Shown here piece by piece: positions 6,011 to 64,000 of a stretch of 64,000 bases of DNA. The DNA comes from a virus (Duplodnaviria > Caudoviricetes): positions 128,001 through 192,000 of the IMG/VR virus record IMGVR_UViG_2907128583_000005; one strand, given 5' to 3'. The position numbers and the translations under genes are program-made. The notes under the pieces were generated by a model. That model made no database searches and was not told the origin of the DNA. It saw only the letters and a list, made by a program, of their open reading frames with translations. Each line of letters starts with the position of its first letter. Positions within the stretch are counted from its first letter, which is position 1.

Positions 6011-6182
6011 TCTGTATCACCTCTGCGCAATAGCGCAATATTCTTCAAACTCTACAATACTATGTTACTAGTTTCTTTACAATGTTTGCCTATCGATAAA
6101 TAAATCATAACATATCTCTATACCATATTCAATATATTCATTATTTTTGTTTATTAAAAAGACCACATTAACGTTATCTTTA

Positions 6183-11412: not shown

Positions 11413-11567
11413 GTAATCACCTCATATTTGTTGTTTTTCATAAATTAATTATACTACATTTATTTATTTTTGTATATAGGTTTTATATAATTTCATTATA
11501 TTTAATTATAAAAAAAGACCGCCTAAGCGATCTTGGTCAAATTAATCTTTTATAAGGAGTATGATAA

Positions 11568-16579: not shown

Positions 16580-16823
16580 AAATTTCTCCTCCTAAAATTT
16601 CCATATATTTTTTTGTCGTATGCTTTATAGTTCCATTTATTTATATTTATTTCTTATAAAATCGTTGTTTTAATTGGTTACAATACATTGTTTCTATCTC
16701 CCGATACAGTGTTGCTTTCTTTGTTAAAACTATTATATCATCATTCTTTATATTTATCAATATTCATTATATTTAATTATATTAAAAAACTGAGCCTGCA
16801 ATTAGACTCAGTTTTTAATACTA

Positions 16824-18082: not shown

Positions 18083-18126
18083 GCACTCACCTCCGTTAAA
18101 ATTTATTTTAATGTTCTCTTGAGATA

Positions 18127-18155
18127 AGTATATCATTCTGTTTCTACTCTGTCAA
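18127..18155 (-). promoter_or_regulatory. sigma-A promoter TTGACA-17-(TGa)TATACT
   Basis: Consensus -35 and extended -10; conserved box at 18160 directly upstream. Confidence 0.8.
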
Positions 18156-18267
18156 TATATTCATTATATTTAGTTGTTTAATATATAATGATGTTACTCT
18201 CAATAAAAAAGCGCTTGAGATATTAACTCAGCGCTTCTTATTAGTAAAAGTAACAATTTATCAATCT

Positions 18268-20915: not shown

Positions 20916-21081
20916 ACCCGCTACCTCCCGCGTAAGGCCGCCGACTGCTATGTATTAACTTACCTTATGAATTTATTATAACACATCATTTCATTATATT
21001 CAATAGTTTAATTATTTTTGTATGTTGAATTGTGATTATTCTCCTTCTCTACGTCGAACAGTTCCTTGTAAAATATCAGTT

Positions 21082-24356: not shown

Positions 24357-24409
24357 AATCATTACCACCTTTATTATCATTATTTTTATTTATATGTTTC
24401 TTTTTCATT

Positions 24410-24505: not shown

Positions 24506-24662
24506 TGTGTTTTCACCTCGTAATCTCATGTTCTTTATATATTTATTATAGCATGTTTTTATTTTATATACAATACATTTCATTATATTTAATTATATAA
24601 TTTGAATAAACGACAAATAAACCACCTATCAGATGAATAGATGGTTAGATGAAAAAATATGC

Positions 24663-27600: not shown

Positions 27601-27883
27601 GTAGTTTCACCTCCCTCCCTTACTTATATAATTATATCATACTTCATACTCTATGTACATTATTTCATTATATTTATTTATTTAGGCAATATAAAATATA
27701 TCCCTATTGGACGGTTTGGTTATGTTTTGTAATGTGCAAGTGGTATTTATTACCTTTTGTTTCACGTGGAACATTTCATTATATTCATGTGTTAGTATTT
27801 AATCTTTATTATCACAATTAGCCAAAACAATATGCTAGTTAGAATAGTTACCTTGTCTTTAATCTTCCACGAGTTCATAATAT

Positions 27884-29600: not shown

Positions 29601-30786
29601 TGTTATCACCTCCTTACATATATTATTATAACACATTTCATTATTTTTGTGTATATAAATTTGATAAATAGAGGAAAAATATTGAGGGAAAATGATGAGA
29701 TGAGTTATAGATATAGATATAGATATAGGCTATGAGGTGAGATGAATATATAGATATAATAGATTGATTAAAGTTGATTGATAGTTTGTATATATGAGTC
29801 TTATCTTGCGCTAATTCCGTTACAACTCGATTAAGGTGTTGTGTAGGTGCTATCCCCTATTGGTTATAGAGTTTGAAAATTCAAATTTAAAATCAGAATC
29901 CAAGTGTTTTTTGAAAATAATTTCCATATTTATAAACTGGTAGAGTATGGATATAGTTAGTCAATGCTTGATTGATGGATACTTCTAAATGCGCTACAAC
30001 TATGGTTTTACCTCATTTAGAATAGAGTAGTGGGGGGTAGTTTACATCCAGAGAGCACCTATTTTTTACAAATATGCCCCTAGCACTTCAACTCTCACGC
30101 TCAGTTTATTTTTTTAACTGATCATTTTCATTTATTACATCTTTGTAACTATTACATCATATTTTCAACTCATCTCAATCGTAACTTGAATCGTCAAACT
30201 CCTTATCTCTCCTATATTTTATCTCTCATTACAACTTTGTAACTACGCCCTTTTTGATCATTTTTATCTCTCCTGCATCAAATTATCCTTTTACTGTCTA
30301 TACTTTTACGATTCAATAGCCCCAAAACCAATCCAATATCCCCCACAACCCCTTATAACATATATGTTTTTCATCCATTTACTCTCAATTTACGATTCAA
30401 CTTTTTTTCATCGCGATTGAGATCTCCTCGGGGGTAATTTAACATCAAACGACAGTAAGATCCAACCATCCATATGATCATATATTTAATAGCACATACA
30501 TTATCAACTTTTACTTACACATACATACCCTATTAAACTGTTTGAATCTATTGTTCTAATATTTTTAAATTTTCAATTTTAACAGAACACAAAAAAAGAC
30601 AGCCACAATCGACTGTCCTATAATTCAACTTATTTAATAAAATTATTGTCAAGCTAACCACAACAAAAAACAACGACAGAGAGTTGGATGCGCGTTAGCG
30701 AAGACATACTCTAAATACTGTATATACATATCTAATATCTATATATCTATTACTAACTTACTAGCCCCCAATTTCTCCAGGACATT

Positions 30787-30860
30787 TTGGGAGTGGTTCT
30801 TGGATTATTTGGGAGTGGATGTTGGATAAATTGGGAGTGGTTCTTGGATAAATTGGGACT
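30787..30860. repeat. tandem 22-bp iteron-like repeats (3 plus a partial copy)
   Basis: TTGGGAGTGGTTCTTGGATTAT / TTGGGAGTGGATGTTGGATAAA / TTGGGAGTGGTTCTTGGATAAA / TTGGGACT, next to an AT-rich tract at 30720-30760. Confidence 0.85.
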
Positions 30861-30868
30861 AGGTGTAT

Positions 30869-31546
30869 TTATAAGGTTTCTAGCCTATCGTAATTCAAAT
30901 AGTAATGGTTGTTATACTTATTGAATAATAGCTTACCCTCATCATCATATTGGTAACTGGTATGTATTGCATTCTTTTCAATGCTAAGTATCCCTTTTTC
31001 CTCTAGTTGCTTTGTATACTTAGGAATTGTGTTCTTGCTCATATTCAATTCTCTAGTCATGGTTGTTTCAATCCCCGGATAACAATACATCTTCTTACTA
31101 TTCGTATGATTTATATAACTTTTTAAATAATATAATATTCTTACTTCTTTTCTGTCTAACTTTCGATCTCTCATGGCATATAAAACATTTATGGGTAATT
31201 GAGTAAAGTATTCCGTCTCTTCTTTGCTGATAGAGGTCAAAAACTTATCCTTGTTCAAGGTAAGTAAGATGGGCTTATTTTGTTTTAACTCTTCAACTTC
31301 TTTCAGTAAATACCTCAGATTGTACAGTTCTTTGAATATAGTCTTTATCGTTTTATTATCTGAGATACAAAGATAATCTTTTACTTCTGTAGTAAATACT
31401 TCGAACTCAAACTTGTTCCCTGTCTTCCAATATAAATACTTCAGGTAAAATACAAATGCAAATCCATTTACGCTCAAGTTAGGATCTCTTACTACATCAT
31501 TTCTAATGAGAATGGTTTGTTTAACCGCTTTTTTGTTTTCATTCAT
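30869..31546 (-). CDS. tandem winged-helix protein, putative replication initiator
   Basis: Two related halves (I.NDVVRDPNLS..GF..VFYL; FTQLP...LDRKEVRILYYL...CYPGIETT..ELNMSKNTIPKY..QLEEKGIL); abuts the iterons. Confidence 0.7.
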   Translation of the reverse strand: MNENKKAVKQTILIRNDVVRDPNLSVNGFAFVFYLKYLYWKTGNKFEFEVFTTEVKDYLCISDNKTIKTIFKELYNLRYLLKEVEELKQNKPILLTLNKDKFLTSISKEETEYFTQLPINVLYAMRDRKLDRKEVRILYYLKSYINHTNSKKMYCYPGIETTMTRELNMSKNTIPKYTKQLEEKGILSIEKNAIHTSYQYDDEGKLLFNKYNNHYYLNYDRLETL

Positions 31547-33078: not shown

Positions 33079-34368
33079 TTGATGTATGACAATATCAAAT
33101 TGTGGTTTGCTAGAAATCAGACAGGAAATACAATATGTATAGATGAAATAAACAATGGCAATCTTAATGAAAAATATTATTGTCCAATATGTGGCTCAGA
33201 ATTAAAACCGAAAGCAACACATTCAGAAAAAGTATCTGCCCACTTTGCTCATTTCGACATTAGTAAATGCAATTCAGAGTCAATGGTTCATTGGTGGTTT
33301 AAGCATGAATTCATTAAACCCGGAGACACTTTTTATATAGTCACTGACAAAGAAACAAAATATGTTTGCGAAGAGATTTTCACAGAAGAAACACACAAAG
33401 TAGACAGCAGAAAATACAGACCAGATGTGACAATTAAAACAGAGTGTGGAAATACCATATTTTTCGAGATTTACTGCACCAATAAAAAGAGTATTAGAGA
33501 TTATTTCGATCTATGGACATCACTTTCATCAATAGTTGTGGAAATTGACACAAAAAACTTGTTACAAAGAGATATGAAATTTAAAGCATTGTTCTATAGT
33601 GGAAAGTGTTTTAATGTTAAGAGAAATGATACATACTATCATACAATAGGTAGTTACAAAGAAGAATTGATGCTATCACAGAATAATAATACTCACCTAA
33701 AAGAAAGAGTGCGTAAACTTGATTGGTTCTGGGATGATGTAATCAAGTACAAAAATAATAAAATTGATATCGAACAGATAGCGAATACTATTGACTCTAT
33801 TGAAAATACTGATAAACATATTGTTATGAAAGTTTTGAAAAAATCAATGTGTGCGAATTTGTACCAAGACTATAAAAATTTTATGAGTCTAAATGAGTCA
33901 GCCATCTTTACAGAGAGACTTGGTGGTTCTCATTCACTCAATCATTTAACGAACAGAATTCAACTTATTCTAGAACCTTTGATAGAAAACATCGAAGTTA
34001 AATTAATAAGTAAAAATCATTATTCACATCGTAGTTATTATAATGGCTCAAGAAAGCATCCTTATAAATACAGAAAAGAATTCTCGCATTACACATATTG
34101 TTTAATTATTAGACGTACAAATAAGACACTGCGTAAGATTGAAATAACAAATAAAATTTTGAACATGGCAGAAGCCCAATTAAAAATATTTTGCGAAGAT
34201 ATTAGGGCTTCGTTAAAAGATAGAAAGGTTAAACATGTCTGTATTAACTGTAAAAAGGGATATTTATTATCCTATTCTGAAATGCAAAGCTACCTAAGAA
34301 AAGAATTAAATATCCCTAAAAGATGTAAGACATGTAGATTGAAAAGGAGGAAAACTATTGTTGACTAA
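33079..34368 (+). CDS. CoiA-like zinc-ribbon/nuclease-domain protein with C-terminal zinc ribbon
   Basis: YYCPICG...HFAH...CNSESMVHWWFK; RPDV...FFEI..TNKK; CINC...PKRCKTCR. Confidence 0.75.
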   Translation: MMYDNIKLWFARNQTGNTICIDEINNGNLNEKYYCPICGSELKPKATHSEKVSAHFAHFDISKCNSESMVHWWFKHEFIKPGDTFYIVTDKETKYVCEEIFTEETHKVDSRKYRPDVTIKTECGNTIFFEIYCTNKKSIRDYFDLWTSLSSIVVEIDTKNLLQRDMKFKALFYSGKCFNVKRNDTYYHTIGSYKEELMLSQNNNTHLKERVRKLDWFWDDVIKYKNNKIDIEQIANTIDSIENTDKHIVMKVLKKSMCANLYQDYKNFMSLNESAIFTERLGGSHSLNHLTNRIQLILEPLIENIEVKLISKNHYSHRSYYNGSRKHPYKYRKEFSHYTYCLIIRRTNKTLRKIEITNKILNMAEAQLKIFCEDIRASLKDRKVKHVCINCKKGYLLSYSEMQSYLRKELNIPKRCKTCRLKRRKTIVD

Positions 34369-37135
34369 TCGACAGTTTTATACAATGAAGTTTAAGTCAT
34401 CTAGACTCAAAGAGTTCGACTATGATATTAACTTATCATTTGAAGAAGCAAAGTCGTTTGGGGAAATCATTGCTTTAGCCGATAATCAATTTTTAAGAAG
34501 CATTAGAGACATCAAAAGCAAAAAAGTCGATATAAAAAAACTAGAAGAACTATACGATGAACGAAATGCGTTGCGAAAATCAAATTCCCAGAGCAATTTA
34601 AAAAAAATTAAACAAATACAGTCTAAAATATACGATATGATGTTTATTCCTGAATACATAACCATTGAAATTGAACATACTAGTCATTATGACTACTTAT
34701 TCCAAAATGGACTGCTTTTGAACGGTAAAAAATATGTGCGCCTATCAAGCTCGGCTGGGCAAGCAAGAGCATCAACTGTTGTTTTCTGTGAAGAAAAAAT
34801 GAAGATAAAATTATGTGAAGTGCTAAATAATGGTCGTAACCCAGATGTGAAACTTGCCCCTTCTAAATTCAATGCCTACTTTGGTCTAGCTGGTTCAGCC
34901 ACTAAGATAGTATCTACACCAAGATTTTGTGTCGTACCAGACTATCATAGCGAGACAAATATGTTTTACAACTATGCGACTGAAACAGCTTTAGATAAGG
35001 ATGATACTATTGAAGTCAAAGAATTAGCACAGTTATTTAATCGTTTTGATGGTCAGGGATTAATTAGTTATGAAATGGCTGCGAAATGGGCTGGTGATTT
35101 AGGATTAGATTATGTACCTGCCCAATGGTGTATACGACAAAACTATATTAAGGGTATGCTCTGTACTTTTGACATTCATAAATTCTGTGAATCTGAGAAT
35201 AATGGGAATTATATCGTTAAATCTTTATATAAGGATGTGAGCGGAAACGATATTTTTATAGATGTTAAAAATATCGATGTCATACTTTCAGAAAGTCAGT
35301 TTAAACTGTGGGACTCATTTCCGAGCTTAGAGTATTATCAGAACAATTGTGAAAAAAACAATTTAAAATGGGGAGTTTCCCTGTATACTCCAAAAGAAAC
35401 AAAAGATATTCTGAGAATGAATTATCAGTTTCTACAAACTTTAAACTTGTCCAAACAAGATATTGAAGATATTTGCGAAAAATTTGTCAACTGGGTATCT
35501 GGTATAAGTTCTGATAATATATACTATACTCTTCTGTTTTTGTTGGGAATGAATCCAACAGAAAGCAAAATAAATAAATTTCTGGTAGGAAGCGACAAGT
35601 ATTGGATTAAAAGTTTAATCCTTAACCATTCTTTGATTAATGATGATTTTATTAAAAAGAAAATTCATGAAATGATCAAAACTAAGATTAAAAACGCTTG
35701 TCTTGGTGAAATTATTGTTGATGGCAACTTTCAGACCCTAGTAAGTGATCCGTATGCGATGATGCAGCATGTTTGTGGACTAGAAGTAACAGGATTACTA
35801 AAGAAAAATGAATATTATTCGAATTATTGGAATGAAAAAAGAGTAAAAACTGTTGATTCCATGAGAGCGCCGCTCACATATCGCAGCGAACATCTTAAGC
35901 TGAAGTTAGTCGACAACAATAATCTTAATGATTGGTACAAACATTGCTATACGGGAGTTATCGTGAATGTCTTTGGCAAAGAAACGGTAAACTGGGCAGG
36001 TAGCGATTGGGACTACGATCAAATTGCAACAACAAGCAATGAAACCATTTTGAACAGTGTATATGAAGATGAATTGCCAATTACATATGATCCACCCAAA
36101 CCAACCAAGATAAATTTCATCGACTTTGATTTGTATCAGTCTGACAAATTTTCTTTTGGTTCTCAGATTGGTTCCATTACAAATAAGAGTACTTCTGCCT
36201 ACGCTCTTCTTCCTATGTTCGATGTAGGCTCTGCTGAATATGAATTGACTATGAATAGACTAAAAATGTGTACAAAATTACAGTCTGCACAGATTGATAA
36301 AGCTAAAATAGGTCGAAATGTAAAGGGAATCCCAAAAAATTGGACTACTTATCAAAAGATAGATAATGAAGATTCTCCAGAACTAAAAGAAGAAAAAGAA
36401 CTCTTGAATCGCTCATTACTTGATAAACATCCATATTTCTTTATTTACCTATATAGAGACACAAAAAAGAAATATAAAAAATACGTTGAAGGCAAAAATC
36501 TTGAGTGCCAACATAAACTCGATTTAACATTAAAGGATCTAATTAATAAACCCAGAAAAAACACTGATGAGCGTAATTTCCTCAAAGAGTACTATAAACA
36601 ATCACCAGTGATTGAATCTGATTGCGTAATGAACAACGTTTGCAAATACATAGAGTCTATTGATTTTTCTATCAAAGAAAAAATACATACTTATGATTTA
36701 GAAGTGAAAAACCATCTTAAATCAGATAAGGTGCATTGGAACGAACTAACATTTAAAAAGGTTGCTCGTAATATTAAGAGATATAACAGAAAAGTCAGCG
36801 ACTCCGGTAATTTGAATATGCATTCAGTTGGAATGAATAATAAATATGACTCTTATACAGATAATCAAAGAAGCATTCAATTAGATTATCTAAAAGACAT
36901 AATGGACGATATTTGCACTAATCATGAAGAGTTGGTTAACTATCTGATAGAACTTGCATATTCAGATAAACCGAAAATGAAAAAAAATTTACTATGGGAG
37001 CTATACGGCAATATTTTATTTAATAACGTCAAAAGAAAATCAAAAAACATAGTGTATTTCCCCTTCCCTTCTGCACATGGGAATATTGAGTATTTGAATA
37101 AAAAATATGAATTACGGGAGGTTAATCTTGATTAA
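34358..37135 (+). CDS. yonO: YonO-like single-subunit DNA-dependent RNA polymerase (RdRP-related double-psi beta-barrel)
   Basis: SSAGQAR, KFNAYFGL, FDGQGLI, IR...KGML, RAP, DWDYD metal motif, IGSITN, QIDKAK; position upstream of HU and terminase. Confidence 0.92.
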   Translation: MLTNRQFYTMKFKSSRLKEFDYDINLSFEEAKSFGEIIALADNQFLRSIRDIKSKKVDIKKLEELYDERNALRKSNSQSNLKKIKQIQSKIYDMMFIPEYITIEIEHTSHYDYLFQNGLLLNGKKYVRLSSSAGQARASTVVFCEEKMKIKLCEVLNNGRNPDVKLAPSKFNAYFGLAGSATKIVSTPRFCVVPDYHSETNMFYNYATETALDKDDTIEVKELAQLFNRFDGQGLISYEMAAKWAGDLGLDYVPAQWCIRQNYIKGMLCTFDIHKFCESENNGNYIVKSLYKDVSGNDIFIDVKNIDVILSESQFKLWDSFPSLEYYQNNCEKNNLKWGVSLYTPKETKDILRMNYQFLQTLNLSKQDIEDICEKFVNWVSGISSDNIYYTLLFLLGMNPTESKINKFLVGSDKYWIKSLILNHSLINDDFIKKKIHEMIKTKIKNACLGEIIVDGNFQTLVSDPYAMMQHVCGLEVTGLLKKNEYYSNYWNEKRVKTVDSMRAPLTYRSEHLKLKLVDNNNLNDWYKHCYTGVIVNVFGKETVNWAGSDWDYDQIATTSNETILNSVYEDELPITYDPPKPTKINFIDFDLYQSDKFSFGSQIGSITNKSTSAYALLPMFDVGSAEYELTMNRLKMCTKLQSAQIDKAKIGRNVKGIPKNWTTYQKIDNEDSPELKEEKELLNRSLLDKHPYFFIYLYRDTKKKYKKYVEGKNLECQHKLDLTLKDLINKPRKNTDERNFLKEYYKQSPVIESDCVMNNVCKYIESIDFSIKEKIHTYDLEVKNHLKSDKVHWNELTFKKVARNIKRYNRKVSDSGNLNMHSVGMNNKYDSYTDNQRSIQLDYLKDIMDDICTNHEELVNYLIELAYSDKPKMKKNLLWELYGNILFNNVKRKSKNIVYFPFPSAHGNIEYLNKKYELREVNLD

Positions 37136-52807: not shown

Positions 52808-53590
52808 ATTTGTACAGAAACTATTACAATAGCATCTCCAATTAGAAATAGAGCTTGGATACTTCCTTTATATCTTGAACACATCAGAAATATTGAATAT
52901 CCCAAAAATAAAATTGAGTTACTGTTTGTTGTAAATGATTCTCAAGATGAGTCACTTAACATATTGACTGAATTCAAGAAAACTCATCACGAATATAAAA
53001 AAATACGAATTGAGAAATATAACCGCAATGTCCCAGAAGACAAACGAGATTTAAGCACTAGGAATAACTATGTATACACTCATTTGAGTATTTTAAAGAA
53101 TTATGTCATGACCAAAGCCAGAACAGATAGATTGTTATTTGTCGACAGTGATATCCTTGTTCAACCTGATATTATTAATAATCTACTCAAATCAAACAAA
53201 GATATTATTTCAGGATTGATTTGGAACGGATATATAGCTAATATCGATAAGCCTTACCTTTATCCCAACATCATGAAGATAACTGAACAGGGATTGTACA
53301 AACACATCGTAAACAGTTATGTCAAAAAAGCCCCCTCTCTCTCCTCTTCATTTCTTATAAAAGTTGATCTTACAGGGGCAGTTATTATGTTAAGCCGTAA
53401 AGTCTACAAGTCAGTAAAATACGGATTTCATCCGCAAGGCGAGGATGCATACTTTTGTAAAATGGCTCAGGACAAAGGGTTTGAGCTTTTTTGTGATTTA
53501 AGTGTGTTTTCGAATCATATTATGAGTCCAGAATATTTAAGGGAGTTCTTAAATGAAACAAAAAATAATACTTTATCCACCCACCCTTAA
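52808..53590 (+). CDS. GT-A fold (GT2-like) glycosyltransferase, probable ATT start
   Basis: In-frame extension upstream of the called ORF gives ITIASPIRNRAWILPLYL...FVVNDSQDES; FVDSD DxD motif; GED..FC motif. Confidence 0.88.
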   Translation: MCTETITIASPIRNRAWILPLYLEHIRNIEYPKNKIELLFVVNDSQDESLNILTEFKKTHHEYKKIRIEKYNRNVPEDKRDLSTRNNYVYTHLSILKNYVMTKARTDRLLFVDSDILVQPDIINNLLKSNKDIISGLIWNGYIANIDKPYLYPNIMKITEQGLYKHIVNSYVKKAPSLSSSFLIKVDLTGAVIMLSRKVYKSVKYGFHPQGEDAYFCKMAQDKGFELFCDLSVFSNHIMSPEYLREFLNETKNNTLSTHP

Positions 53591-54557
53591 CTGGGATTTC
53601 CTCACGCAACGTCCTCAACAGATTGTTAAGCAATTTGCTCGAAGAGGTTGGACAGTGGTTTTCTGCAATAACACTCAATCAGACAAGCCGCCCGAAGAAG
53701 TAGAGCCTAATTTATTTGTCTATCACAGTTTCGAAGAAGTACTTAAATTAATTAAGCATAGAAGCATTAAAGTAGATATATTTTATTACACTTGGGCAAA
53801 ATCGGCTCAATATGTCGAAGATATAAAAGCAAAGATTAATATTTATGATTCAGTTGATAGTTTTAGCGATTGGTATGAGTATGAAGATGATGCCATTAAG
53901 AAAGCCGACATTGTGTTAACGTCTAGTCAGTTTCTGTATGACCTTAGAAGCAAAAGCAGTGAAAGTACATATCTAGTCAGAAATGCTTGTCCAGAATCGT
54001 ATATAAATAAACCCTCACAAATTCCTGAAGAATATAAAACATTAAATGGCCCAATTGCCCTCTTTTCAGGTGCTATTGGCTCTTGGGTAGATACTCGTCT
54101 GATTCGTAAAGTTGCAGAGAAATATACTACTGTACTTGTGGGACAAGAGTTTGGCAAGGAATGTCCATCAAATGTTATTAAATTGGGAACCAAGGATCAC
54201 GACGACCTTTACAACTATTATGCTCATGCTGATGTATGTCTCCTTCCCTTCAATACGAAATTGGAAATCACACAAGCAGCATGTGCTATTAAAATGTTCG
54301 AACATATGGCTGCGGGTAAAATCACTGTAGCTACCAAATGGATGGAAACAGAGATTTATGATGAAGCTGTTCTAGTTGCTGATAATGACGATGAATTTTT
54401 AGCCCAAGTCGACAAAGCAATCGAACTTGGAAAAATGGATACCTATAAGGATATATGCCTTAAACACGCTAAAGAAAATACATGGGAGAAACGTTCTGAA
54501 CAGATACTTAAAGCCATTAATGATTACTGTTTAAAGAGTGGTGTTATACTTGACTGA
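53553..54557 (+). CDS. GT-B fold (GT4/TuaH-like) glycosyltransferase
   Basis: QRPQQIVKQFARRG, IYDSVD, FSGAIGSWVD, ADVCLLPF, IKMFEHMAAGK. Confidence 0.92.
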   Translation: MKQKIILYPPTLNWDFLTQRPQQIVKQFARRGWTVVFCNNTQSDKPPEEVEPNLFVYHSFEEVLKLIKHRSIKVDIFYYTWAKSAQYVEDIKAKINIYDSVDSFSDWYEYEDDAIKKADIVLTSSQFLYDLRSKSSESTYLVRNACPESYINKPSQIPEEYKTLNGPIALFSGAIGSWVDTRLIRKVAEKYTTVLVGQEFGKECPSNVIKLGTKDHDDLYNYYAHADVCLLPFNTKLEITQAACAIKMFEHMAAGKITVATKWMETEIYDEAVLVADNDDEFLAQVDKAIELGKMDTYKDICLKHAKENTWEKRSEQILKAINDYCLKSGVILD

Positions 54558-55521
54558 AAAATTGAAAGTGCTTTTTACAAATAATGCAGCGTTAATCAAG
54601 TATGGTATTGCGTCAGGCTTTAAAAACCTTGGATGTGACACTTATATTATGGATGGTAGATACCAACTGTGGGATAAGTCTAAGGAAATCCAGAGTGAGT
54701 TATTCAAAGAGGTAGTTGAAAATTATAAACCCGACATTGTATTCTCAGAATGCTTTGCGAACTTTGCTGAAGATATATTTGAACACACTAAAGAAAAAGG
54801 CATTTTCCATGCTTATTGGGCAATCGAAGATACTCCTCATGACCACTGGATAGGCGACTACTGGTCAGACTATGCTGATCACATCTTTACTACCACCGCC
54901 GAATGTTTACAAAATTACTGGAGCAAAGGGAAAAAAGCAGAGTTAATGCTATTTGGGTGTAACCCCTCCTTCCACAAGACAGTATCCGCTAAGGCAAGTT
55001 ATGATATTTCACTAGTAGCTAATAACTACGAACGAAGATCTAAACAAACGAAAGGCTTTATTTTGCCCTTGGTTGAACAAGGATTTGATATATCTATTTA
55101 CGGTAATGATTGGTGGATGGATGGAAACCGTGAAATAAATTTGGTGAGTCATCCTCATGTATATAAGGGATATAAGGCATATGAAGAACTCCCTCTACTC
55201 TACTCTTCTTCAAAAATTATCATTGGACAAAACTTAGACGATCATTCTATCACACAAACTTCAATGAGGCCGTTTGAAGCTATTGCAATTGGTGGAGGTG
55301 TATTTGTATCCCCTTGGACTAAAGCTCAAGAGTATCTATTCCATGACTTAATCTATCTCCCCAATACGACTGAAGAAATGATTCAAATGGTAAACGAAGT
55401 TCTTAATATGACGGACAGACAGCGAAAAATCAAAGCAAAAAAAGCACAAAGATTTGTATATAAATATCACAATTACGACATTAGAGCATCACAAGTTGTT
55501 GATGCTTATTTTTGTCGTTAA
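54550..55521 (+). CDS. CgeB-like glycosyltransferase (Glyco_trans_1_2 type)
   Basis: WAIEDTP, ADHIFTT, GCNPSFH, YDISLVAN, LYSSSKI, MRPFEAIAIGG, HNYDIRA. Confidence 0.9.
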   Translation: MTEKLKVLFTNNAALIKYGIASGFKNLGCDTYIMDGRYQLWDKSKEIQSELFKEVVENYKPDIVFSECFANFAEDIFEHTKEKGIFHAYWAIEDTPHDHWIGDYWSDYADHIFTTTAECLQNYWSKGKKAELMLFGCNPSFHKTVSAKASYDISLVANNYERRSKQTKGFILPLVEQGFDISIYGNDWWMDGNREINLVSHPHVYKGYKAYEELPLLYSSSKIIIGQNLDDHSITQTSMRPFEAIAIGGGVFVSPWTKAQEYLFHDLIYLPNTTEEMIQMVNEVLNMTDRQRKIKAKKAQRFVYKYHNYDIRASQVVDAYFCR

Positions 55522-55536: not shown

Positions 55537-56064
55537 TTGGCTAAGAAGTTAACAGCAACTGAACTCAATAAGTTAAAGACTAGTCTAAATAAAAAGAAAA
55601 ATGAGTACATCAAAACTAATGATGGAGAAGAATACGAAGTTGCTGTAAGCGTTGAATTTCGCGACTCTCTAATCGAGAACGTTGCTATGTCTTATATTGG
55701 ATACCTTCAAGAGTTACGTGAAACATCAAAAAATGATCAACTGGACAATGAATTGATTAAAGGGACATTGAAACTAGTTCCTGTTTTAGCATTTAGAGAG
55801 TTTACCAATATTCCCGTTCCAAAAAAGGCTACACTGAAAGAAATCATTGGGCTATCTGAATTGCTTGCAGATAAAGGTATTACAGAGGCGCTTTTGAGTA
55901 AGTTTCCTGCAGGTGAATATCAAAAGATTGTCAATAAGATTAAACAGGCTGCGAAAAGTGCTAAGGCAACCGTAGGAGAAATTATGTTAGCCAATGCTTT
56001 AAATCAGGATGGTGATGATAATGGATTTCAACAATCTGACGGATCTAATGAAACAACTGGATGA
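55537..56064 (+). CDS. tail assembly chaperone candidate (YomO-like)
   Basis: KKLT N-terminus, REFTNIP motif; synteny. Confidence 0.6.
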   Translation: MAKKLTATELNKLKTSLNKKKNEYIKTNDGEEYEVAVSVEFRDSLIENVAMSYIGYLQELRETSKNDQLDNELIKGTLKLVPVLAFREFTNIPVPKKATLKEIIGLSELLADKGITEALLSKFPAGEYQKIVNKIKQAAKSAKATVGEIMLANALNQDGDDNGFQQSDGSNETTG

Positions 56065-56449
56065 ACAAATTGCTGAGACATTAAAGGTTGATGTAGGCAA
56101 TACCGCAAAAGAAATAATGAAAGATAAGATTCAGGAAGAAGTGTATTCCGTATATTCCCCTACTGTTTATCAGCGACAAGGCGAACATGGTGGATTAACC
56201 GATGACGAAAACATCGAAGTAAGAATGATAGCTAAGGACACTGTATCTATCGAAAGTAAACGTATGGATGATGGTAGGAATGTGAGTGAAATTGTTGAGA
56301 CGGGTCAAGGATACCAATATTCGTTTCCTTACGCTGGAGTAGCAAGACCATTCACCGAAGCAACTAGAGAAGAATTGGAGAATAGCGGCGTAGTCGAAGC
56401 TATTTTATATAAGGGATTACGTAAAAAAGGATTGGACGTACAGAAATAA
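56021..56449 (+). CDS. YomN-like tail completion protein (HK97 gp10-like position)
   Basis: IQEEVY.VYSP.VYQR and ARPF motifs. Confidence 0.7.
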   Translation: MDFNNLTDLMKQLDEQIAETLKVDVGNTAKEIMKDKIQEEVYSVYSPTVYQRQGEHGGLTDDENIEVRMIAKDTVSIESKRMDDGRNVSEIVETGQGYQYSFPYAGVARPFTEATREELENSGVVEAILYKGLRKKGLDVQK

Positions 56450-56488: not shown

Positions 56489-56809
56489 ATGAAAATCAAT
56501 AAACACATGATTGCATTTTTTATTTATGGTTTAAACACATTAATTGATAATGGGGAAAACATAAACAAAACTGATATGCTAAAACTTATAGAATCAAAAG
56601 ATATTATTTCATACCTAAACAGAACTTTCAAATTAAAATATTGGGATTTTACAGTACTGATAAAATATGAAGACGACTTGTCTGATCGATTAATGGAATA
56701 TTATCCTTACCTCAGTAACGATAGTTATAGTAAATTTGGTGTTGAAAACAATGGCTATATTATATTAAATTCTATTGCGACAGGTTTGCTATTGGATTTT
56801 AATGACTAA
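56489..56809 (+). CDS. hypothetical protein (AT-rich, accessory)
   Basis: AAGGAG RBS. Confidence 0.65.
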   Translation: MKINKHMIAFFIYGLNTLIDNGENINKTDMLKLIESKDIISYLNRTFKLKYWDFTVLIKYEDDLSDRLMEYYPYLSNDSYSKFGVENNGYIILNSIATGLLLDFND

Positions 56810-56945: not shown

Positions 56946-57947
56946 ATGAGCAAAAAAGAAGTAAAAAAGAATACTTTGCGCGAACCAGCTAAAAAGCAAG
57001 CCGAAGTCACAGATGATATGTGGCAGCAAGTCAATGAAGATTATAGATTTAATGCTGAAGAGTTTGTTTCTGTGCAGGATCTTTCCCCTCAATCTCGCAA
57101 ACAATACACGAGTGTAATTAGGCAGTTTGGCTGGTACATGGTTAACTCTATGAACAACAAGCCATTTTACAAAATTACAAAGAGAGACTTTCTTCGTTAC
57201 CTAAGCTATATACGCGACAATAGAAAAATGTCCTCGTCAGCAATCAGTTTTAGAAAGTCTGTCATTTCAAGTTTTTGTAATCATATAGAAAACATCATCG
57301 CAGAAGAAGATGAAAACTATAAGAGCTTCCGAAATTTCACTCGTGGCCTCCCTTCTATCGCCAAGAATCGCGTTTATGAAAAAATTAAGGTTACTAAAGA
57401 TGAATATGACATGATGATGAGCGTTTTAGAAGAAGACGAAAACTGGCTTGGAATGGCTTGGTTGGCTACCGCTTTTAGAGTTGGTGCTCGACGATCAGAG
57501 ATCATTCAGTTTAAGACTGAAATATTGGATTATGAAGTGTCGGATGACAAAAATTATATTATGACCCACAATGTAAGAGGTAAAGGAAAATCAATCGACG
57601 GAAAGCCAATTCAATATATGATTCCATTAGACGTTATTCCCCATCTGAGAAAATGGGTTGATTCTCGTGGCTATGATAGCGAATATATTTTTACTACTAA
57701 ATACGGAAATGAAATTAAAGCGATGTCTCCTGCTTGGGCAGATGACTTTTGTTCTAATACCCTCTCTGATATTTTAGAGCGTAGGGTTAATGTTCATATT
57801 TTCAAAAATTCATGTATCACATATCTCCTTGAAAGTGGGAAAGATATTAAGATAGTCTCCAAGTTTGTGGCGCATCACAATGATATTTCCACTACCTCTA
57901 TTTATGACCTGCGTGATTTTGAAGATGAGAAAAATAAGATTTTTTAA
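56946..57947 (+). CDS. YomM-like tyrosine recombinase
   Basis: GARRSE (R), GKGK (K), HIFK in place of HxxR, AHH, TTSIY (Y); position before tape measure as in SPbeta. Confidence 0.9.
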   Translation: MSKKEVKKNTLREPAKKQAEVTDDMWQQVNEDYRFNAEEFVSVQDLSPQSRKQYTSVIRQFGWYMVNSMNNKPFYKITKRDFLRYLSYIRDNRKMSSSAISFRKSVISSFCNHIENIIAEEDENYKSFRNFTRGLPSIAKNRVYEKIKVTKDEYDMMMSVLEEDENWLGMAWLATAFRVGARRSEIIQFKTEILDYEVSDDKNYIMTHNVRGKGKSIDGKPIQYMIPLDVIPHLRKWVDSRGYDSEYIFTTKYGNEIKAMSPAWADDFCSNTLSDILERRVNVHIFKNSCITYLLESGKDIKIVSKFVAHHNDISTTSIYDLRDFEDEKNKIF

Positions 57948-57960
57948 TTAGCTTGACCCA

Positions 57961-57978
57961 GTAAAACTATCCTTTTAT
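57961..57978. repeat. perfect copy of the RTAAAA-N6-TTTTAY element just after the recombinase stop
   Basis: GTAAAA-CTATCC-TTTTAT; the only perfect copy I noticed in the late region. Confidence 0.85.
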
Positions 57979-58012: not shown

Positions 58013-58435
58013 ATGAAACTATACAAATTTGAACTTGAAAATTTTATAGCTTATCTAGATAAACTAAAAACAGACCGAACTGACACTAGACATAGAGTTA
58101 AATTTAAAGGTTTACTTACCGACCATTACACAGAACTTTTAAATGATGCAAATGATATCAATCTTGATTATGTGATTAAAGATAAAGAAGGAAATCCCAT
58201 TGTTGAAAACGGAAAATATACCTTCGAGAATGATAATGAACGGCTCTCTGAGTTAAACAAGCTTTATAATGAAGAAATTGTAATTGATGAAACAGATGAA
58301 CGAAAAGCAATGCTCCTATCTGTTAAGGAATCGGTGATCAATCGTGGTCCAACCGAGTTTACTGGTACCGAAGGAGACTGGTATGTTCGCTTCTGTGAAA
58401 TTGTAGAACAAATTGAATATAAGGATGAACAATAA
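58013..58435 (+). CDS. hypothetical phage protein (DUF1617-like, tentative)
   Basis: R.R.KF...L....YV.KD.EGNPI pattern; terminator AAGAAGAGA/TCTCTTCTT downstream. Confidence 0.65.
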   Translation: MKLYKFELENFIAYLDKLKTDRTDTRHRVKFKGLLTDHYTELLNDANDINLDYVIKDKEGNPIVENGKYTFENDNERLSELNKLYNEEIVIDETDERKAMLLSVKESVINRGPTEFTGTEGDWYVRFCEIVEQIEYKDEQ

Positions 58436-58502
58436 GAAGAGATATTAAGTCTCTTCTTTTTTCTATTTTTCTAAAGTAAAAAAAGGAAGTGACTTAAACG
58501 TA

Positions 58503-61500
58503 ATGGCAGATATGCGTATATTAATAAGTGCTGGCTTAAATGTAGGTAAATCAATTGGGGATGTAAATGCTTCAATTAAAGCGTTGAGCAAGCACCCTTC
58601 TCTTCAGAAGTTAGATTTAAAAATTAATGTAGACCAAAGTTTTGTAAAATCGATTCAAGGATTTGTTGATGCTACAAAGAAGCTTAATGTAGCAATGGAA
58701 CAGCAAAATAGAGTTGTAAAAGAAACACAAGATGTGTACAAAAACTTAGATGGTACTGTTAAACAAGTTACTCAGCAAGTTTTAAAGAACGGTGAAGTAA
58801 TTGAAAAGACAAAGACAGTTCATGATGCAAATAAAAAGGCTGTAAATGATGAATCTAAATCTCTACAAGATCAGATTCGTACGCTAAAACAACTAGAAAA
58901 AGAGCTTGAAGGTTATACACTAGCTAAAACAAGAGCTAATAAAAATAAGCTTGGTGAAACAAATAGTACTACAAATACATATAAGAATGACTCTGGGCAA
59001 CAGATTTCCGTTAAACTGGATCAACAAGGAAACGTAAAAAACTATAGCGAGATTAATGAAATATTAAAGCAGCAACAAGCTGTACTTAAGTCGGCTGAAA
59101 CTATGGATAGAGCACACTATGATGCATTAAAGTCCAACAAGCAACGCATTGAAGTTATGGATAAGTTGCACTATCAAGCATTACAAAGAAATAGAGAGAT
59201 CGACAGACGTAACCAAGAGCAATCATTAAAAGCTGCTGAGTCATTGGATCGTGCTCACTATCAAGCTTTGAAGTCGAATAGTGAAAGACAAATTGCACAA
59301 GAAAAGCAACATGCCTTAGCTTTACAACAAAATGCTAAAAGAGATCAGCAATATGCTCAATCTGTGGCAAATACACAACAAAAGATTAATGATGCCAGAA
59401 GTAAATTTAGTGGTAACACTCAAGCTCAAAATAGTTTAGCTGAATTAGAAAATAGACTAAAAGGTATACGTAATATTGGTGATTTTAAGTCACCTCTAGG
59501 GAATTTAAATAACGATTTAAAAAGAACAGTACAAGGTTTTAATGAAGCCAGTAAAAGTTCTGAAACTTTCGGTAGTTCAATACAGGGCATACTTAAAAGT
59601 ATGATCATGTGGTCGGCAGTTACCGCCGCGATCTATGCTCCAATCAACGCTTTTAAAGAGGGCATTCAGCATATCTACGAACTTGATAAAGCAATGACTG
59701 ATCTCAAGAAAGTTACAGATGAAACAAATGAAATGTATCAACAAGTCATTTTGAACTCATCTAAAACAGCAAATGAAATTGGTGGCTTGACTCTAGATGT
59801 AATTAACTCCACTACTGAATGGGCTAGATTAGGTTACACAATCCAACAGGCGCAGCAATTAGCAAAGCAAACATTGGTTTATCAAAATGTAGGTGATATA
59901 TCTAATGCCCAAGAAGCATCTAAGCAGCTTATTTCTTCTATAAAAGGCTTTGGCATTGAAGTAGACAACGAAGGCAAAAACATTCAACATGTCGTAGATG
60001 TTTATAATGAGGTTGGTAATAAATTTGCCATCTCCACCGAAGGGATTGGTCAAGCGGTACAAAGATCGGCATCCTCCCTCTCCTCTGCTGGTAATACAAT
60101 AGAACAATCTGTAGCACTAATTACAGCAGCAAATAGTACAGTGCAAGATCCAGCTAAAGTAGGTAATGCACTCAAAACACTGTCAATGCGTTTGCGTGGT
60201 GTGGGAGAAGATGGAGAAGCAATTGATGGACTCGTTCCCAAGCTTGAGAAAAAGTTTCAATCGCTTGGATTAACCTTAAAAAAAGATGATAAAACTTTTA
60301 AGAGTACATATGAAATATTCGATGACTTATCAAAGATTTGGAAGAATCTTAGCGATATTCAACAAGCAGATGTTCTAGAATTAGTAGCTGGTAAAATGCA
60401 AGGTAATATTGCTGCTTCCATGATTAGTAACTGGAAAGATGCTCAAGCTTCTTTAGAAGCAGGTATTAACTCATTCGGCTCGGCTTCTAAGGAAAATGAA
60501 ACCTATCTAGCATCATTAGAAGGAAGAATTCATACCTTTACCAATGCAGTCAGTGCCTTTTGGGAGCACTCAATTAGTGCCAGTTTCCTAAAGGGTGTTG
60601 TTGATATAGGAACTACTCTTATTAACGTATTAGGTAAAGTATCTAGCACAATTGGGTTTCTCCCTACAGTTGTAGGAGCTGCTACACTAGCCTTTATGCT
60701 TTTTTCAAAAACTGGGCTTACTCCACTTTACACACTCTTGACTACTATTCCTTTGAAATTAAACCTGTTTAAACTTGAATTGCGATCCCTTATAGCTACT
60801 AATGGACTCGCCTCTGCTTCACTTAAAATACTCGGTACCTCCTTTGCTGCCTTGGGTAGAACTATTGCACCATTAGCCATTATTACTGGAGTTACTTGGG
60901 CTTTGACAGAACTGTTTTCTTGGATTTCAAAATCCAACGAAGCCGCCAGAGAAGCTAGGACAATTAACTATGACACTGTAAACTCTTATAGAGAGCAAAA
61001 AAAGTCTATAGAAGATTTGTCTCAGGAAATGAATACACTCCAAGAAGCTGAAAGCAATCAAACAATTAACACTGATCAGAAAAAGAGATTGTTAGAAATT
61101 CAAGTAATGCTGGTTGAACAGTATGGTGTTGCTGCTAACAAGATTAATGCCGAAGGTAAAGCCTATACTGATTCAGTTGAGGCTATAAATGCACGTACCG
61201 AAGCATTACAAAAGCAGATTGAAGCGGAAAATTCACTTAATCGCTCTAAATTGGCTGGTCAAGACAATGAAAGCACAACAAAAATAAAAGATAGTAAAGA
61301 TGAAGTTGAAGAGTACCAAAAGAAAATAGATCAAACCAAGAAACAAATAGAGTTATTAAAGAAAGATATGGAATCAGGAAAGCTATCACCTGATACAAAA
61401 ATAAATACATCTGATATTTTGAAAAGATATGGTGATTTAGCTACCTCTGATTCTATTTTTGGAAAAGATTTAGATCAACTCCAGTATTCTGCTAAAGGAT

Positions 61501-64000
61501 TGTTAGAGCAATATAATCGGACTGACGCTGAATTACAAGGAAAAATGTCTGAGTCGAATGGTAAATTACATGAAGCATTAAGCGAACGAGTAAAAGTTCT
61601 TCAAGATTCTACGACTCAATACATATTCGAGCTGACTGACAAAGGTAAAACGGTTTCTGATTCACAACGCGCTTTTGTTCAAGAGATGGTTAAATCTATA
61701 GCTGGTAACTCTTCTAGTCTTACTGACCAAGAAAAACAAATACGCCAAGTAGTTGATAGTCTCAACAACAGTAATATTGAAAGTTTAATTCAAAAATATC
61801 AAAAACTAAGCGATGCGTTTAAACTTGACCCTTCAACTCAAAATAATAATGAGATATTGAAAGTCCGCAACGATATTTCTGAGCTATTGGAAACCATAAC
61901 TAAAGGGGTTCCAATGTTTGGAGACTATAAAGAATCTGTAATGGCAATGTTTCCGGCGTTTAGTATGGCTGATGTTGCTGCCCAACAATTCGCTAAAACT
62001 TCTGGACAAATTGAGTCATTACAAAAATCTCTCCAATCAGCATATAAGGACACTACCTCGGAGATTAAAGATTTAAACAAGGTAATGGCAGATATCAGCA
62101 AAGGTAACGCCTTAAATGCAGATCAAGTAGCTGAGTTAATTATTAAGTACCCTTCTCTTGCTGGGCACATCAAAAAAGTTGCTGACGGTTGGACAATTGA
62201 AGAATCAGCGATTCAAGCTTTACAGAAAGCAAAGATAACTGAAACCAAATACACTTTAGAACAAGAGAAGACAAAGACTACTCAACTCCTTCAAGCCACA
62301 TTAAATCGATTAAAGATTTATGATATCGAAGTCAATGCCTTAGATCAGATAGCAAATAAGCAGAAGGCCATAGATGAGCTGAATTCCAAAAAGATTCCAA
62401 CGTCTGATGGAATGAATGTAAAAGCTCCAAGTATTCTGCCGGGTTTGAATCCCATTATGGATAACTATCTCCCAAAACTAGCTCAAGAACATAATAAATT
62501 AATCGATGACACCAAGAGTCAAGTTGAAACGGTTTCTGATTTGTATAAGCAGCTAAATGATTTAGGGAAATTGTTTGACGATCCGAATTATGGTGTTAGC
62601 ACAGAATCAAAAAAGAAGAACGACCAATACAATGATTCTATGTCTCAGACGAATGAGATTTTAACTGAAACTCAGAAGAAGTTAAAGGCTGTTGAAGCAG
62701 CTCAAGATGCTTTAAACAGTAAGAAGAGTCGATTAAAAAAAGGTTCTGAGGAATACGGTAAAGCTCTTAAAGAGGAAATTAAACTCCTTGAAAAGCAAGC
62801 TGCATTGCTAACCGAAGGTATTAAAGATCCATCTAAGTTAGTGTCTACGAAAGTTACCACTACTACAAAAGGTGGAACTGGTTTAGATTCAATGATTTCC
62901 GAAGCCTTGTCCTTGTCTTCGTCCAAAACGTTCAAATATAGCCAAGCCGCCAAATCGAATGTTAGTTATGACCAGTTTACGGCAACTGCTGTATCCGACT
63001 GCTCTTTGTTCGTACAACAGATGTTTAAGGAATTCCTTGATATTAAGCTTCCCCGAACTACGCAAGAGCAAGTAAAACAAGGTCAAGCTGTAACCAATAA
63101 AAAGGATTTGCAAAAGGGCGATCTGGTATTCTTTAACACTGTCAAAGGTAAAGCTAATTCACATGTTGGTGTGTATATGGGTGACGGAAACTTTATGCAG
63201 ATGGGCAATTCTGGCTTAAAGCAAGGGAGCCTGAACGACAAGTATTGGGCAGATAAATACAGTGGTGCTAGACGTATTCCCGGTGCTAATGCTATTCCAG
63301 AAATTCAACCTCCCTCCACTTCTACATCAACAAAAGTAACTGGCAAAAATGCTGACTTGATTAATAAATATGCTGGAGCGAATGGTGTAGATCCTGCATT
63401 AATCAAAGCTATTATCCAACAGGAGTCTTCCAATGGTGCCAATGGTATTAAAAACGTCATGCAAGTTAGCAGCCTTGGTAAAAACACTAGCGTTGAAAGC
63501 AGTATTAAAACTGGTACCTCAATGTTTGCAAAATATCTCAATCAAACGGGCAACGTTGAAATTGCTTTGGCTATGTATAATATGGGGCCAGGAATATTGG
63601 ATTATTTCAATAAAAATGGTGGATACAGCGTTGAGAATATGAAAAAATTCTCTGCTCTGCAAAAGAGCAAGACGGGAAGCAAGGTTTATGGTGACGTAAA
63701 TTATGTTGGCAACGTATTGAGATACTATGATGGCGACACTTCTTCAGTTTCAGGTGGGAAATCTAAAAATAAATACACCCTCCCTTCTGCTTCTGATATG
63801 GATAAAGCTCAAGCTGATGCACGTGGACAAAGAACAACTACATACGACAACATTTATAAAGCACGAATTGATTACATTGATAACTATGTAACAATCGGTC
63901 AGAACAAGATAGATGCTTTAGATGCGGAAATAGCGAAGTCGCAAGGTAGACAAGCAAAATATGATCAAGTATCGAAAAACTGGAGAAAAGAAGAATCTGC
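58503..64000 (+). CDS. tail tape measure protein with NlpC/P60 peptidase and soluble lytic transglycosylase domains (CwlP/YomI-like; truncated by window edge, absent from ORF track)
   Basis: ATG 58503; tape-measure core (LDKAMTDLKKVTD, EWARLGY, VGNALKTLSMRLRG); DCSLFVQQMF...LPRT...GDLVFF...HVGVY at about 62990-63180; VDPALIKAIIQQES...AMYNMGPG at about 63390-63590. Confidence 0.93.
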   Translation, partial: MADMRILISAGLNVGKSIGDVNASIKALSKHPSLQKLDLKINVDQSFVKSIQGFVDATKKLNVAMEQQNRVVKETQDVYKNLDGTVKQVTQQVLKNGEVIEKTKTVHDANKKAVNDESKSLQDQIRTLKQLEKELEGYTLAKTRANKNKLGETNSTTNTYKNDSGQQISVKLDQQGNVKNYSEINEILKQQQAVLKSAETMDRAHYDALKSNKQRIEVMDKLHYQALQRNREIDRRNQEQSLKAAESLDRAHYQALKSNSERQIAQEKQHALALQQNAKRDQQYAQSVANTQQKINDARSKFSGNTQAQNSLAELENRLKGIRNIGDFKSPLGNLNNDLKRTVQGFNEASKSSETFGSSIQGILKSMIMWSAVTAAIYAPINAFKEGIQHIYELDKAMTDLKKVTDETNEMYQQVILNSSKTANEIGGLTLDVINSTTEWARLGYTIQQAQQLAKQTLVYQNVGDISNAQEASKQLISSIKGFGIEVDNEGKNIQHVVDVYNEVGNKFAISTEGIGQAVQRSASSLSSAGNTIEQSVALITAANSTVQDPAKVGNALKTLSMRLRGVGEDGEAIDGLVPKLEKKFQSLGLTLKKDDKTFKSTYEIFDDLSKIWKNLSDIQQADVLELVAGKMQGNIAASMISNWKDAQASLEAGINSFGSASKENETYLASLEGRIHTFTNAVSAFWEHSISASFLKGVVDIGTTLINVLGKVSSTIGFLPTVVGAATLAFMLFSKTGLTPLYTLLTTIPLKLNLFKLELRSLIATNGLASASLKILGTSFAALGRTIAPLAIITGVTWALTELFSWISKSNEAAREARTINYDTVNSYREQKKSIEDLSQEMNTLQEAESNQTINTDQKKRLLEIQVMLVEQYGVAANKINAEGKAYTDSVEAINARTEALQKQIEAENSLNRSKLAGQDNESTTKIKDSKDEVEEYQKKIDQTKKQIELLKKDMESGKLSPDTKINTSDILKRYGDLATSDSIFGKDLDQLQYSAKGLLEQYNRTDAELQGKMSESNGKLHEALSERVKVLQDSTTQYIFELTDKGKTVSDSQRAFVQEMVKSIAGNSSSLTDQEKQIRQVVDSLNNSNIESLIQKYQKLSDAFKLDPSTQNNNEILKVRNDISELLETITKGVPMFGDYKESVMAMFPAFSMADVAAQQFAKTSGQIESLQKSLQSAYKDTTSEIKDLNKVMADISKGNALNADQVAELIIKYPSLAGHIKKVADGWTIEESAIQALQKAKITETKYTLEQEKTKTTQLLQATLNRLKIYDIEVNALDQIANKQKAIDELNSKKIPTSDGMNVKAPSILPGLNPIMDNYLPKLAQEHNKLIDDTKSQVETVSDLYKQLNDLGKLFDDPNYGVSTESKKKNDQYNDSMSQTNEILTETQKKLKAVEAAQDALNSKKSRLKKGSEEYGKALKEEIKLLEKQAALLTEGIKDPSKLVSTKVTTTTKGGTGLDSMISEALSLSSSKTFKYSQAAKSNVSYDQFTATAVSDCSLFVQQMFKEFLDIKLPRTTQEQVKQGQAVTNKKDLQKGDLVFFNTVKGKANSHVGVYMGDGNFMQMGNSGLKQGSLNDKYWADKYSGARRIPGANAIPEIQPPSTSTSTKVTGKNADLINKYAGANGVDPALIKAIIQQESSNGANGIKNVMQVSSLGKNTSVESSIKTGTSMFAKYLNQTGNVEIALAMYNMGPGILDYFNKNGGYSVENMKKFSALQKSKTGSKVYGDVNYVGNVLRYYDGDTSSVSGGKSKNKYTLPSASDMDKAQADARGQRTTTYDNIYKARIDYIDNYVTIGQNKIDALDAEIAKSQGRQAKYDQVSKNWRKEES

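Follow-up and report, generated by a model that had tools for sequence, protein, structure and literature searches.

Why does a recombinase that looks catalytically intact lie in a tail operon, and which protein reads the palindromic sites of the kind that follows its stop codon? Both questions arise from a 64,000-nt stretch of a Caudoviricetes genome (positions 128,001 to 192,000 of the IMG/VR record IMGVR_UViG_2907128583_000005; hereafter, the window), which is part of a 218,271-bp record of an SPbeta-like provirus. The recombinase is a homologue of YomM of phage SPbeta, and the palindrome directly after it is GTAAAACTATCCTTTTAT. A sequence-only reading, made without database searches, had proposed a cassette integrase beside its attI-like site. 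On balance, and with modest confidence, we favour a different explanation as a whole, in which YomM is an enzyme-type core late gene and the palindromes are dispersed sites at gene junctions that would be bound by a protein and would not be cassette boundaries.

The recombinase open reading frame (ORF) matched two Pfam families, Phage_integrase (PF00589; 39.1 bits, 8.5e-10, cut-off 27.1) and Phage_int_SAM_4 (PF13495; 35.6 bits, 1.3e-8, cut-off 27), and its product is 57.5% identical to SPbeta YomM, with 99% of the length covered. In a large protein collection it had 610 matches at E <= 1e-10, and the closest named relatives, at up to 95% identity, came from Paenibacillus genomes; when the locus was compared with the phage collection by megablast, nothing matched. 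Alignment to XerD and XerA placed H284-I-F-K287 on the H-x-x-R motif, putting a lysine at the Arg II position, and showed that the other catalytic residues are present: R182 (Arg I), K213/K220 (hairpin Lys), H284, H310/H311 and Y320. The identification in the sequence-only reading, a YomM-like tyrosine recombinase with HIFK replacing HxxR, was therefore correct. Within the YomM family, R182, K213, H284, H311 and Y320 are invariant in 44/44 members, and residue 287 is lysine in 43/44 and arginine in 1/44; the canonical Arg II is found in more distant homologues, namely those of AM1, Kirov, FADO, a 176-kb gut phage, Ldl1, VFW and RQ1. Lysine at this position is a conservative change.

The AlphaFold2 model of the window YomM has a mean predicted local distance difference test (pLDDT) score of 84.4, and Foldseek matched it with probability 1.00 to XerA, Cre, IntI4 (rank 14), XerH, lambda Int and Tn1549 Int. 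Because the active-site residues are kept, the protein is probably still an enzyme. It has the two-domain fold of the XerC/XerD- and Cre-type recombinases and the same Arg I, beta-hairpin Lys, His II, His III and Tyr nucleophile, but differs from them in the lysine at Arg II in the SPbeta-like clade and in its genomic setting, the gene being placed in the tail module beside the tape measure gene, also in virulent phages. Papers on relatives count YomM among 'multiple integrases' (PMC13245101, PMC3903500), and no function for it is given in the accessible parts of the SPbeta-relatives preprint or of the Perkons, Tsamsa and phiL47 papers.

The setting of the gene is widely conserved. The recombinase was said to sit among tail genes, and it is indeed flanked by chaperone-like ORFs on one side and by the tape measure gene on the other. 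In SPbeta, Goe14, Perkons, Geobacillus E3, a Staphylococcus SPbeta-like phage, Mammaliicoccus phi36, AM1, Kirov and FADO, the YomM homologue is encoded after a pair of small ORFs and ahead of the tape measure gene. Virulent phages also keep the homologue beside the tape measure gene, AM1 being a virulent 949-group Lactococcus phage. We regard yomM as a core late gene of large siphoviruses of Bacillota, across a broad lineage.

The palindrome was likewise located correctly, 13 bp after the recombinase stop, which ends at 57947. The exact 18-mer GTAAAACTATCCTTTTAT occurs once in the window, and its core, TAAAA-N6-TTTTA, occurs 16 times, compared with a mean of 1.37 and a largest count of 5 in 100 dinucleotide-preserving shuffles. 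The spacing is strict: in the window the TAAAA/TTTTA pair was found 16 times at spacing 6 and 0-3 times at any other spacing in the range 0-14, and the provirus has 61 copies at spacing 6 versus 0-6 at other spacings. When all 1,024 pentamers were scored as N6 palindromes in the provirus, TAAAA alone was enriched (61 versus 2.4; runner-up 5). The provirus copies are divided between the early region (56) and the late region (5), with none in the first 50 kb, where the G+C content is host-like. The earlier claim that the copy after yomM is the only perfect one outside the early array holds within the window but not for the provirus, which has four more late-region copies beyond the window end. 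The palindrome after yomM is an ordinary member of a dispersed, lineage-wide family.

On a crude ORF map, 50 of the 61 provirus copies lie between ORFs, typically abutting or overlapping the upstream stop codon and 14-30 nt ahead of the next start; in 13 cases the upstream stop codon falls inside an arm. Read along the direction of transcription, the consensus is G-TAAAA-N5-A-TTTTA-T followed by a Shine-Dalgarno sequence, with G before the left arm in 31/61 copies and T after the right arm in 40/61. By-eye comparison with the GenBank gene tables placed 30/34 SPbeta sites at annotated junctions. We found no published description of this palindrome in the literature searched, though Lazarevic et al. 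1999 may mention it.

The same motif is the top or joint-top palindrome in the following relatives of the provirus. SPbeta has 34 palindromes at N6 versus 0-4 at other spacings, and N6 copies number 25 in Kirov, 33 in FADO, 30 in E3 and 17 in the Staphylococcus SPbeta-like phage, with 54 and 57 in the related genomes G001 and G002. Spacing 6 accounts for 31/38 matches at spacings 3-9 in Goe14 and for 28/42 in Mammaliicoccus phi36. The half-site varies by phage, being strict TAAAA, mixed TAAAA/TGAAA or TGAAA only; the non-strict phages include Perkons (17 palindromes plus 35 G-variants), genomes G003-G005 (50-59 copies of the T(A/G)AAA form) and the gut phage MT835469.1 (25 copies of the TGAAA form versus 1.4). 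In a de novo scan, T(A/G)AAA-N6-TTT(T/C)A was the top palindrome in 6/8 genomes and joint top in a seventh. One copy lies directly after the 'virion structural protein' gene in E3 (L004 2518), the Staphylococcus SPbeta-like phage (L005 2931), Kirov (L011 3901) and FADO (L012 3815); that gene precedes the chaperone-like ORFs, and the position of the site there is kept across very divergent phages, while the window has no palindrome copy at this place.

Motif abundance followed the presence of yomM, a correlation that the sequence-only reading had proposed as a test: of 16 genomes encoding a YomM homologue (identity 32% or more), 15 showed clear N6 enrichment and AM1 only a weak one, compared with 0/2 recombinase-free controls, SPO1 (0/5 matches at spacing 6) and phage K (4/20), neither of which has any tyrosine-recombinase domain. 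Among four phages with a single recombinase, too few to carry weight, RQ1 was moderately enriched, VFW and Ldl1 were not clearly enriched, and BtCS33 was not enriched.

We then considered whether the sites could delimit gene cassettes. In an integron-like system, YomM would be the integrase, the post-gene site attI-like and the dispersed copies attC-like, and late expression would shuffle or capture genes. The inverted arms around a 6-bp spacer do fit a tyrosine-recombinase core site, the catalytic residues of YomM are kept, and, as with the integron integrase IntI, a tyrosine recombinase gene stands beside a site and a variable block of genes, with IntI4 among the fold matches. The accessory genes said to lie between yomM and the tape measure gene of SPbeta were confirmed as yomL, yomK and yomJ. 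Moreover, the site after yomM is identical in 5/5 relatives with a YomM at least 95% identical (at +15), takes the form TAAAA-N6-TTTCA at +12 in 4/4 relatives with a 78-89% identical YomM, and is found at +14 in Perkons, +21 in Goe14, +219 in E3 and +400 in SPbeta. It occurs exactly in the lineages with extra, variable genes at this place (12-21 nt after yomM, or 219-400 nt in E3 and SPbeta) and is missing in 5/5 lineages with the tape measure gene directly after yomM.

The remaining evidence runs the other way. A recombinase inserting a circle would leave two flanking sites, yet the genes after yomM, which on the cassette proposal should be motif-bounded, have a site at their yomM-proximal end only: the distal site is absent in 5/5 lineages (the window's clade, Goe14, SPbeta, Perkons and E3), and the extra genes of L062 and L065-L068 have no site at the junctions that join them. 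For two different copies to recombine in the canonical tyrosine-recombinase manner, their spacers must match, so the lack of shared spacers also counts against cassettes: no pair was found in six genomes (61, 54, 34, 30, 33 and 25 sites), where 0.2-1.0 pairs were expected per genome. Homology breakpoints relative to the closest relative, taken from blastn alignment ends, fell at 15/45 motif-bearing and 40/158 motif-less junctions, which argues that breakpoints prefer junctions generally and not the motif. Integron cassettes are each bounded by a site and the integrase gene is divergent from them, whereas here the recombinase gene shares the plus strand with the 140-amino-acid (aa) ORF and the tape measure gene, so that the recombinase is co-oriented with the supposed cassettes. 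The ORF right after the site is conserved and not variable (its homologues in G003-G005 are 38-41% identical), and the same recombinase gene occupies the same place in virulent phages. Finally, attC acts as a folded single strand, whereas the junction sites are double-stranded palindromes with no sign of folded attC features. Taken together, the sites are most likely neither cassette boundaries nor attI on the sequence evidence, and we regard the integron-like explanation, and with it the cassette integrase of the sequence-only reading, as very unlikely.

The position of the motif directly 5' of Shine-Dalgarno sequences raises the alternative that it acts in RNA, as a small A-U hairpin ahead of the ribosome-binding site for processing or translational control, and the flanking G and T could form a G-U pair on the sense strand. 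The variation of the arms does not fit this explanation. Compensatory double arm changes numbered 16, compared with 11-19 at control spacings, and so show no excess; mixed sites (TAAAA..TTTCA or TGAAA..TTTTA) occur as often in Perkons and G003-G005 as sites with symmetric arms, and among the hybrids of G003 the A-C mismatched form (TAAAA..TTTCA, 22) is as frequent as the G-U form (20). The SPbeta copies ahead of aimR and yorE have a terminator hairpin on one side and the next promoter on the other. At the site in the window, the local RNA fold has z = -0.49 with the arms unpaired in the minimum-energy fold, and no Rfam family matches there. An RNA-level function is the least probable of the explanations considered here. 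Since the arms vary independently and without compensatory changes, we infer that the junction palindrome is bound by a protein that would read it on double-stranded DNA.

Which protein might this be? Among the provirus ORFs of at least 60 aa (crude map), 66 had any tblastn match in seven compared genomes, and only five matched all seven: ribonucleotide reductase, a YopP-like recombinase, the large terminase, YomM and the tape measure protein. YomM was the best conserved of the five (33-62% identity). A precedent comes from SPbeta itself, in which MrpR (YopR), a protein with a recombinase fold, binds a repeated inverted repeat in intergenic DNA, with peaks reported, in the available part of that study, only at ten promoter regions (PMC10516654). 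A homologue of MrpR is encoded in the window's provirus, just outside the window (G000 123795-124772). The tyrosine-recombinase core-site geometry of the motif, together with the MrpR precedent in SPbeta, makes YomM and the YopP-like protein the leading candidates. Considered singly, YomM is a possible but tentative choice as the reader of the sites and the YopP-like recombinase a more doubtful one, the rest of the probability going to another phage protein.

The junction motif as the MrpR operator itself (SPBRE) was rejected on its different sequence and spacing in the ten SPbeta promoters. The ten MrpR-bound promoters share AAATACAAA(A/T)AATATGTATA, an ATACA-N7-TGTAT-like inverted repeat with a 7-bp spacer, which scores separately from the junction motif in the SPbeta palindrome scan. 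SPBRE overlaps promoters and has about 10 copies, whereas the junction motif, with 34 SPbeta copies, lies at junctions of stop codon and ribosome-binding site; the catalytic residues are lost in MrpR and kept in YomM. Two other lines were followed and abandoned. Columns 27 and 35 of YomM split the phages with strict and relaxed half-sites, but residue 27 failed on the gut phage, and the gut phage as a genome with YomM as its only recombinase was ruled out by four recombinase domain matches. The YopP-like protein is too divergent for the half-site covariation test.

The resemblance to dif, the site of XerC/XerD, raises a further possibility: YomM, alone or paired with the YopP-like protein as XerC is with XerD, may act catalytically on the sites, with exchange limited to identical (allelic) copies carried by sister genomes or by genomes that infect together (multimer resolution before packaging, or module exchange between relatives), or may nick and relax DNA in the way of a sequence-specific type IB topoisomerase. 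Two tyrosine recombinases with their catalytic residues kept are encoded in all seven compared genomes, and the inner palindromic arms and 6-bp centre resemble those of dif, the spacing being strictly 6 in the junction motif. The spacer is unique at every site, which would confine exchange to allelic copies, and because virulent phages carry the gene too, the role of YomM would not be integration. On the other hand, multimer resolution needs just one site; dif is present once per replicon, whereas the provirus has 61 copies and SPbeta 34, with differing spacers, if these are YomM's sites. Breakpoints are not enriched at motif-bearing junctions, and the arms specify 5-6 bp only. We consider exchange or relaxation of this kind unlikely. 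A broader proposal, that YomM acts lineage-wide on 20-60 mini-dif-like junction sites, either catalytically between allelic copies, as an engine that exchanges modules among co-infecting relatives or resolves genomes at many points, or as a late roadblock that shuts early operons, would apply to the SPbeta-like phages of Bacillus, Paenibacillus and Staphylococcus and to E3, Perkons, the Tsamsa/Kirov-like phages, FADO and the gut phage; we hold this to be rather doubtful, if less so than the preceding explanation.

We return to the explanation that we favour, protein-bound junction sites alongside an enzyme-type YomM. In this model, T(A/G)AAA-N6-TTT(T/C)A sites occupy the little space between a stop codon and the ribosome-binding site after it, a single conserved phage protein would bind each site as two protomers, and the bound sites would act on gene junctions at the DNA level, as a transcription roadblock, insulator or attenuator, or as an architectural mark. 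Two known systems of dispersed elements are instructive for comparison. In cluster A mycobacteriophages, the immunity repressor binds stoperators, which are asymmetric 13-mers. Like the junction sites, they comprise tens of short sites in intergenic gaps with a transcription-related orientation, but the junction sites are palindromes and are also present in virulent relatives; the copy number and position of the junction sites fit a dispersed operator of this type, for which binding by a regulator is putative. The PeSL elements of T4-type phages are promoter and stem-loop units that flank small early ORFs, are longer and exchange by homology. They too are repeated elements that border small early genes, in a highly mosaic region, whereas the junction motif has 10 fixed bp and breakpoints do not favour its sites.

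An alternative function at the DNA level is that the motif is itself a promoter, terminator or pause signal for the host RNA polymerase or for a phage (YonO-type) polymerase. Its position at gene junctions, the weak orientation bias of its flanks and the copy after the 'virion structural protein' gene in four divergent phages, the major-tail place at which a step-down in expression is usual, are consistent with such a signal. However, the promoter and terminator scan found no -35/-10 pair and no promoter- or terminator-like pattern overlapping the site, and the T run belongs to the palindrome. The late genes of SPbeta are reported to have one transcription start, upstream of yonK (PMC5467207). 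In prophage RNA sequencing (RNA-seq) contigs from two studies, the early region is represented, single contigs span 6 and 4 sites, and all four runs show contig breaks close to 11.42-11.54 kb and 16.70-16.83 kb, where the breaks coincide with copies of a separate AT-rich repeat family (D4/D13) that is similar to early promoters; such contigs are weak evidence for transcript ends, and their uncovered parts are uninformative. A signal for RNA polymerase is, in our judgement, decidedly unlikely.

Several observations weigh against the protein-bound junction sites that we favour, or against YomM as their reader. Under the conditions of the RNA-seq studies the sites did not act as strong barriers, since contigs extend across 6 and 4 of them, and the roadblock or insulator role is a hypothetical one among several DNA-level roles. 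Common descent confounds the association between YomM and the motif, and Lactococcus phage AM1 is weakly enriched (9 copies at N6 versus 0-6 elsewhere, with a mean of 2.3 over six spacings) despite having both recombinases. Half-site preference does not track YomM: the proteins of the window phage and G003 are 89% identical, and of these two phages only the former keeps strictly to TAAAA. The tblastn profile from which the conserved candidates were drawn would miss a helix-turn-helix protein that is small and evolves fast. Lastly, the presence pattern of the post-yomM site is compatible with an insertion point, and an attI-like reading would predict the same.

The features of the locus and the repeat families are collected in Table 1.

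Table 1. Coordinates of the recombinase locus, the junction palindromes and associated features (window positions; nt, nucleotides)
Feature	Position	Strand	Remarks
YomM-family tyrosine recombinase gene, 333 aa	56946..57947	+	core-binding and catalytic domain; active-site set R182, K213, H284, K287, H311, Y320
Junction palindrome GTAAAA-CTATCC-TTTTAT (GTAAAACTATCCTTTTAT)	57961..57978		13 nt past recombinase stop, 34 nt before next start codon
Other 15 core copies	starts 1807, 5833, 6709, 8684, 9294, 10380, 10639, 14117, 14581, 16051, 16657, 19823, 20602, 21069, 22404		15 copies span 1807-22419; 16th at 57962
Two ORFs with a 56-nt overlap: 55537-56064 (175 aa), 56009-56449 (146 aa)	55537..56449	+	tail assembly chaperone pair by position only
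106-aa ORF	56489..56809	+	between chaperone-like ORFs and recombinase gene; no PHROG or Pfam family
140-aa ORF, DUF1617, phrog_1401	58013..58435	+	kept after site in window's clade
Terminator-like hairpin with T run	58434..58458	+	between 140-aa ORF and tape measure gene
Tape measure gene	58503..64000	+	continues beyond window end
Second tyrosine recombinase, YopP homologue, 357 aa	31594..32667	-	complete R-K-H-x-x-R-H-Y set; rival candidate reader
AT-rich repeat family copies	11456-11519, 16753-16790, 18124-18180, 24569-24610, 27628-27684, 29627-29668; also 6096-6158, 20967-21029		

Within the tail module, the overlapping ORFs upstream of the recombinase matched PHROG families of unknown function and had one weak tail match; by place they correspond to SPbeta yomO and the gene after yomO. 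Three glycosyltransferase-like genes in a row occupy 52964-55521 (+), between a major-tail-like gene and the chaperone-like ORFs, and relatives keep two of the three (62-95% identity). In the Staphylococcus (L005 5012-5107) and Mammaliicoccus (L006 5021-5111) phages, a long hairpin with a T run after it stands in the interval that separates the YomM homologue from the tape measure gene. Ldl1, VFW, RQ1 and BtCS33 (L073, L074, L075 and L129; 42-93 kb) have one tyrosine recombinase each, about 25% identical to YomM, which is encoded at or near the end of the late operon and adjoins the lysis genes.

Elsewhere in the window, the AT-rich repeats form a second family of 26-60 bp with the core TTTCATTATATTTA on the plus strand. 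They are probably early promoters and may hold this phage's equivalent of SPBRE. A 295-aa ORF without a Pfam or PHROG family (11568-12455, minus strand) had an RNA word depth of 100-126 in three runs, compared with about 9-60 for its neighbours, and may be expressed from the resting prophage. Just 5' of a 225-aa ORF (30869-31546) with a weak PHROG match to a replication initiation protein, positions 30780-30866 contain three 22-bp repeats in tandem (GGAT.ATTTGGGAGTGG...), which look like origin iterons. The 1019-aa ORF at 21321-24380 (minus strand) has a DNA methyltransferase-like C-terminal region. The 925-aa ORF at 34358-37135 (plus strand) belongs to a PHROG family common to large SPbeta-like proteins, and we take it to be, probably, a YonO-type RNA polymerase.

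SPbeta is a model temperate phage, and YomM is among the best conserved proteins of its lineage, fixed beside the tape measure gene even in virulent phages. If YomM and the motif are linked, the sites would represent a new genome-wide use of site-specific recombination machinery, and YomM acting on dispersed sites would, if true, be a new use of a tyrosine recombinase in the lytic cycle. If they are not linked, the motif would still point to a regulator that has so far gone unrecognised and whose targets include most early operons in this group of phages.

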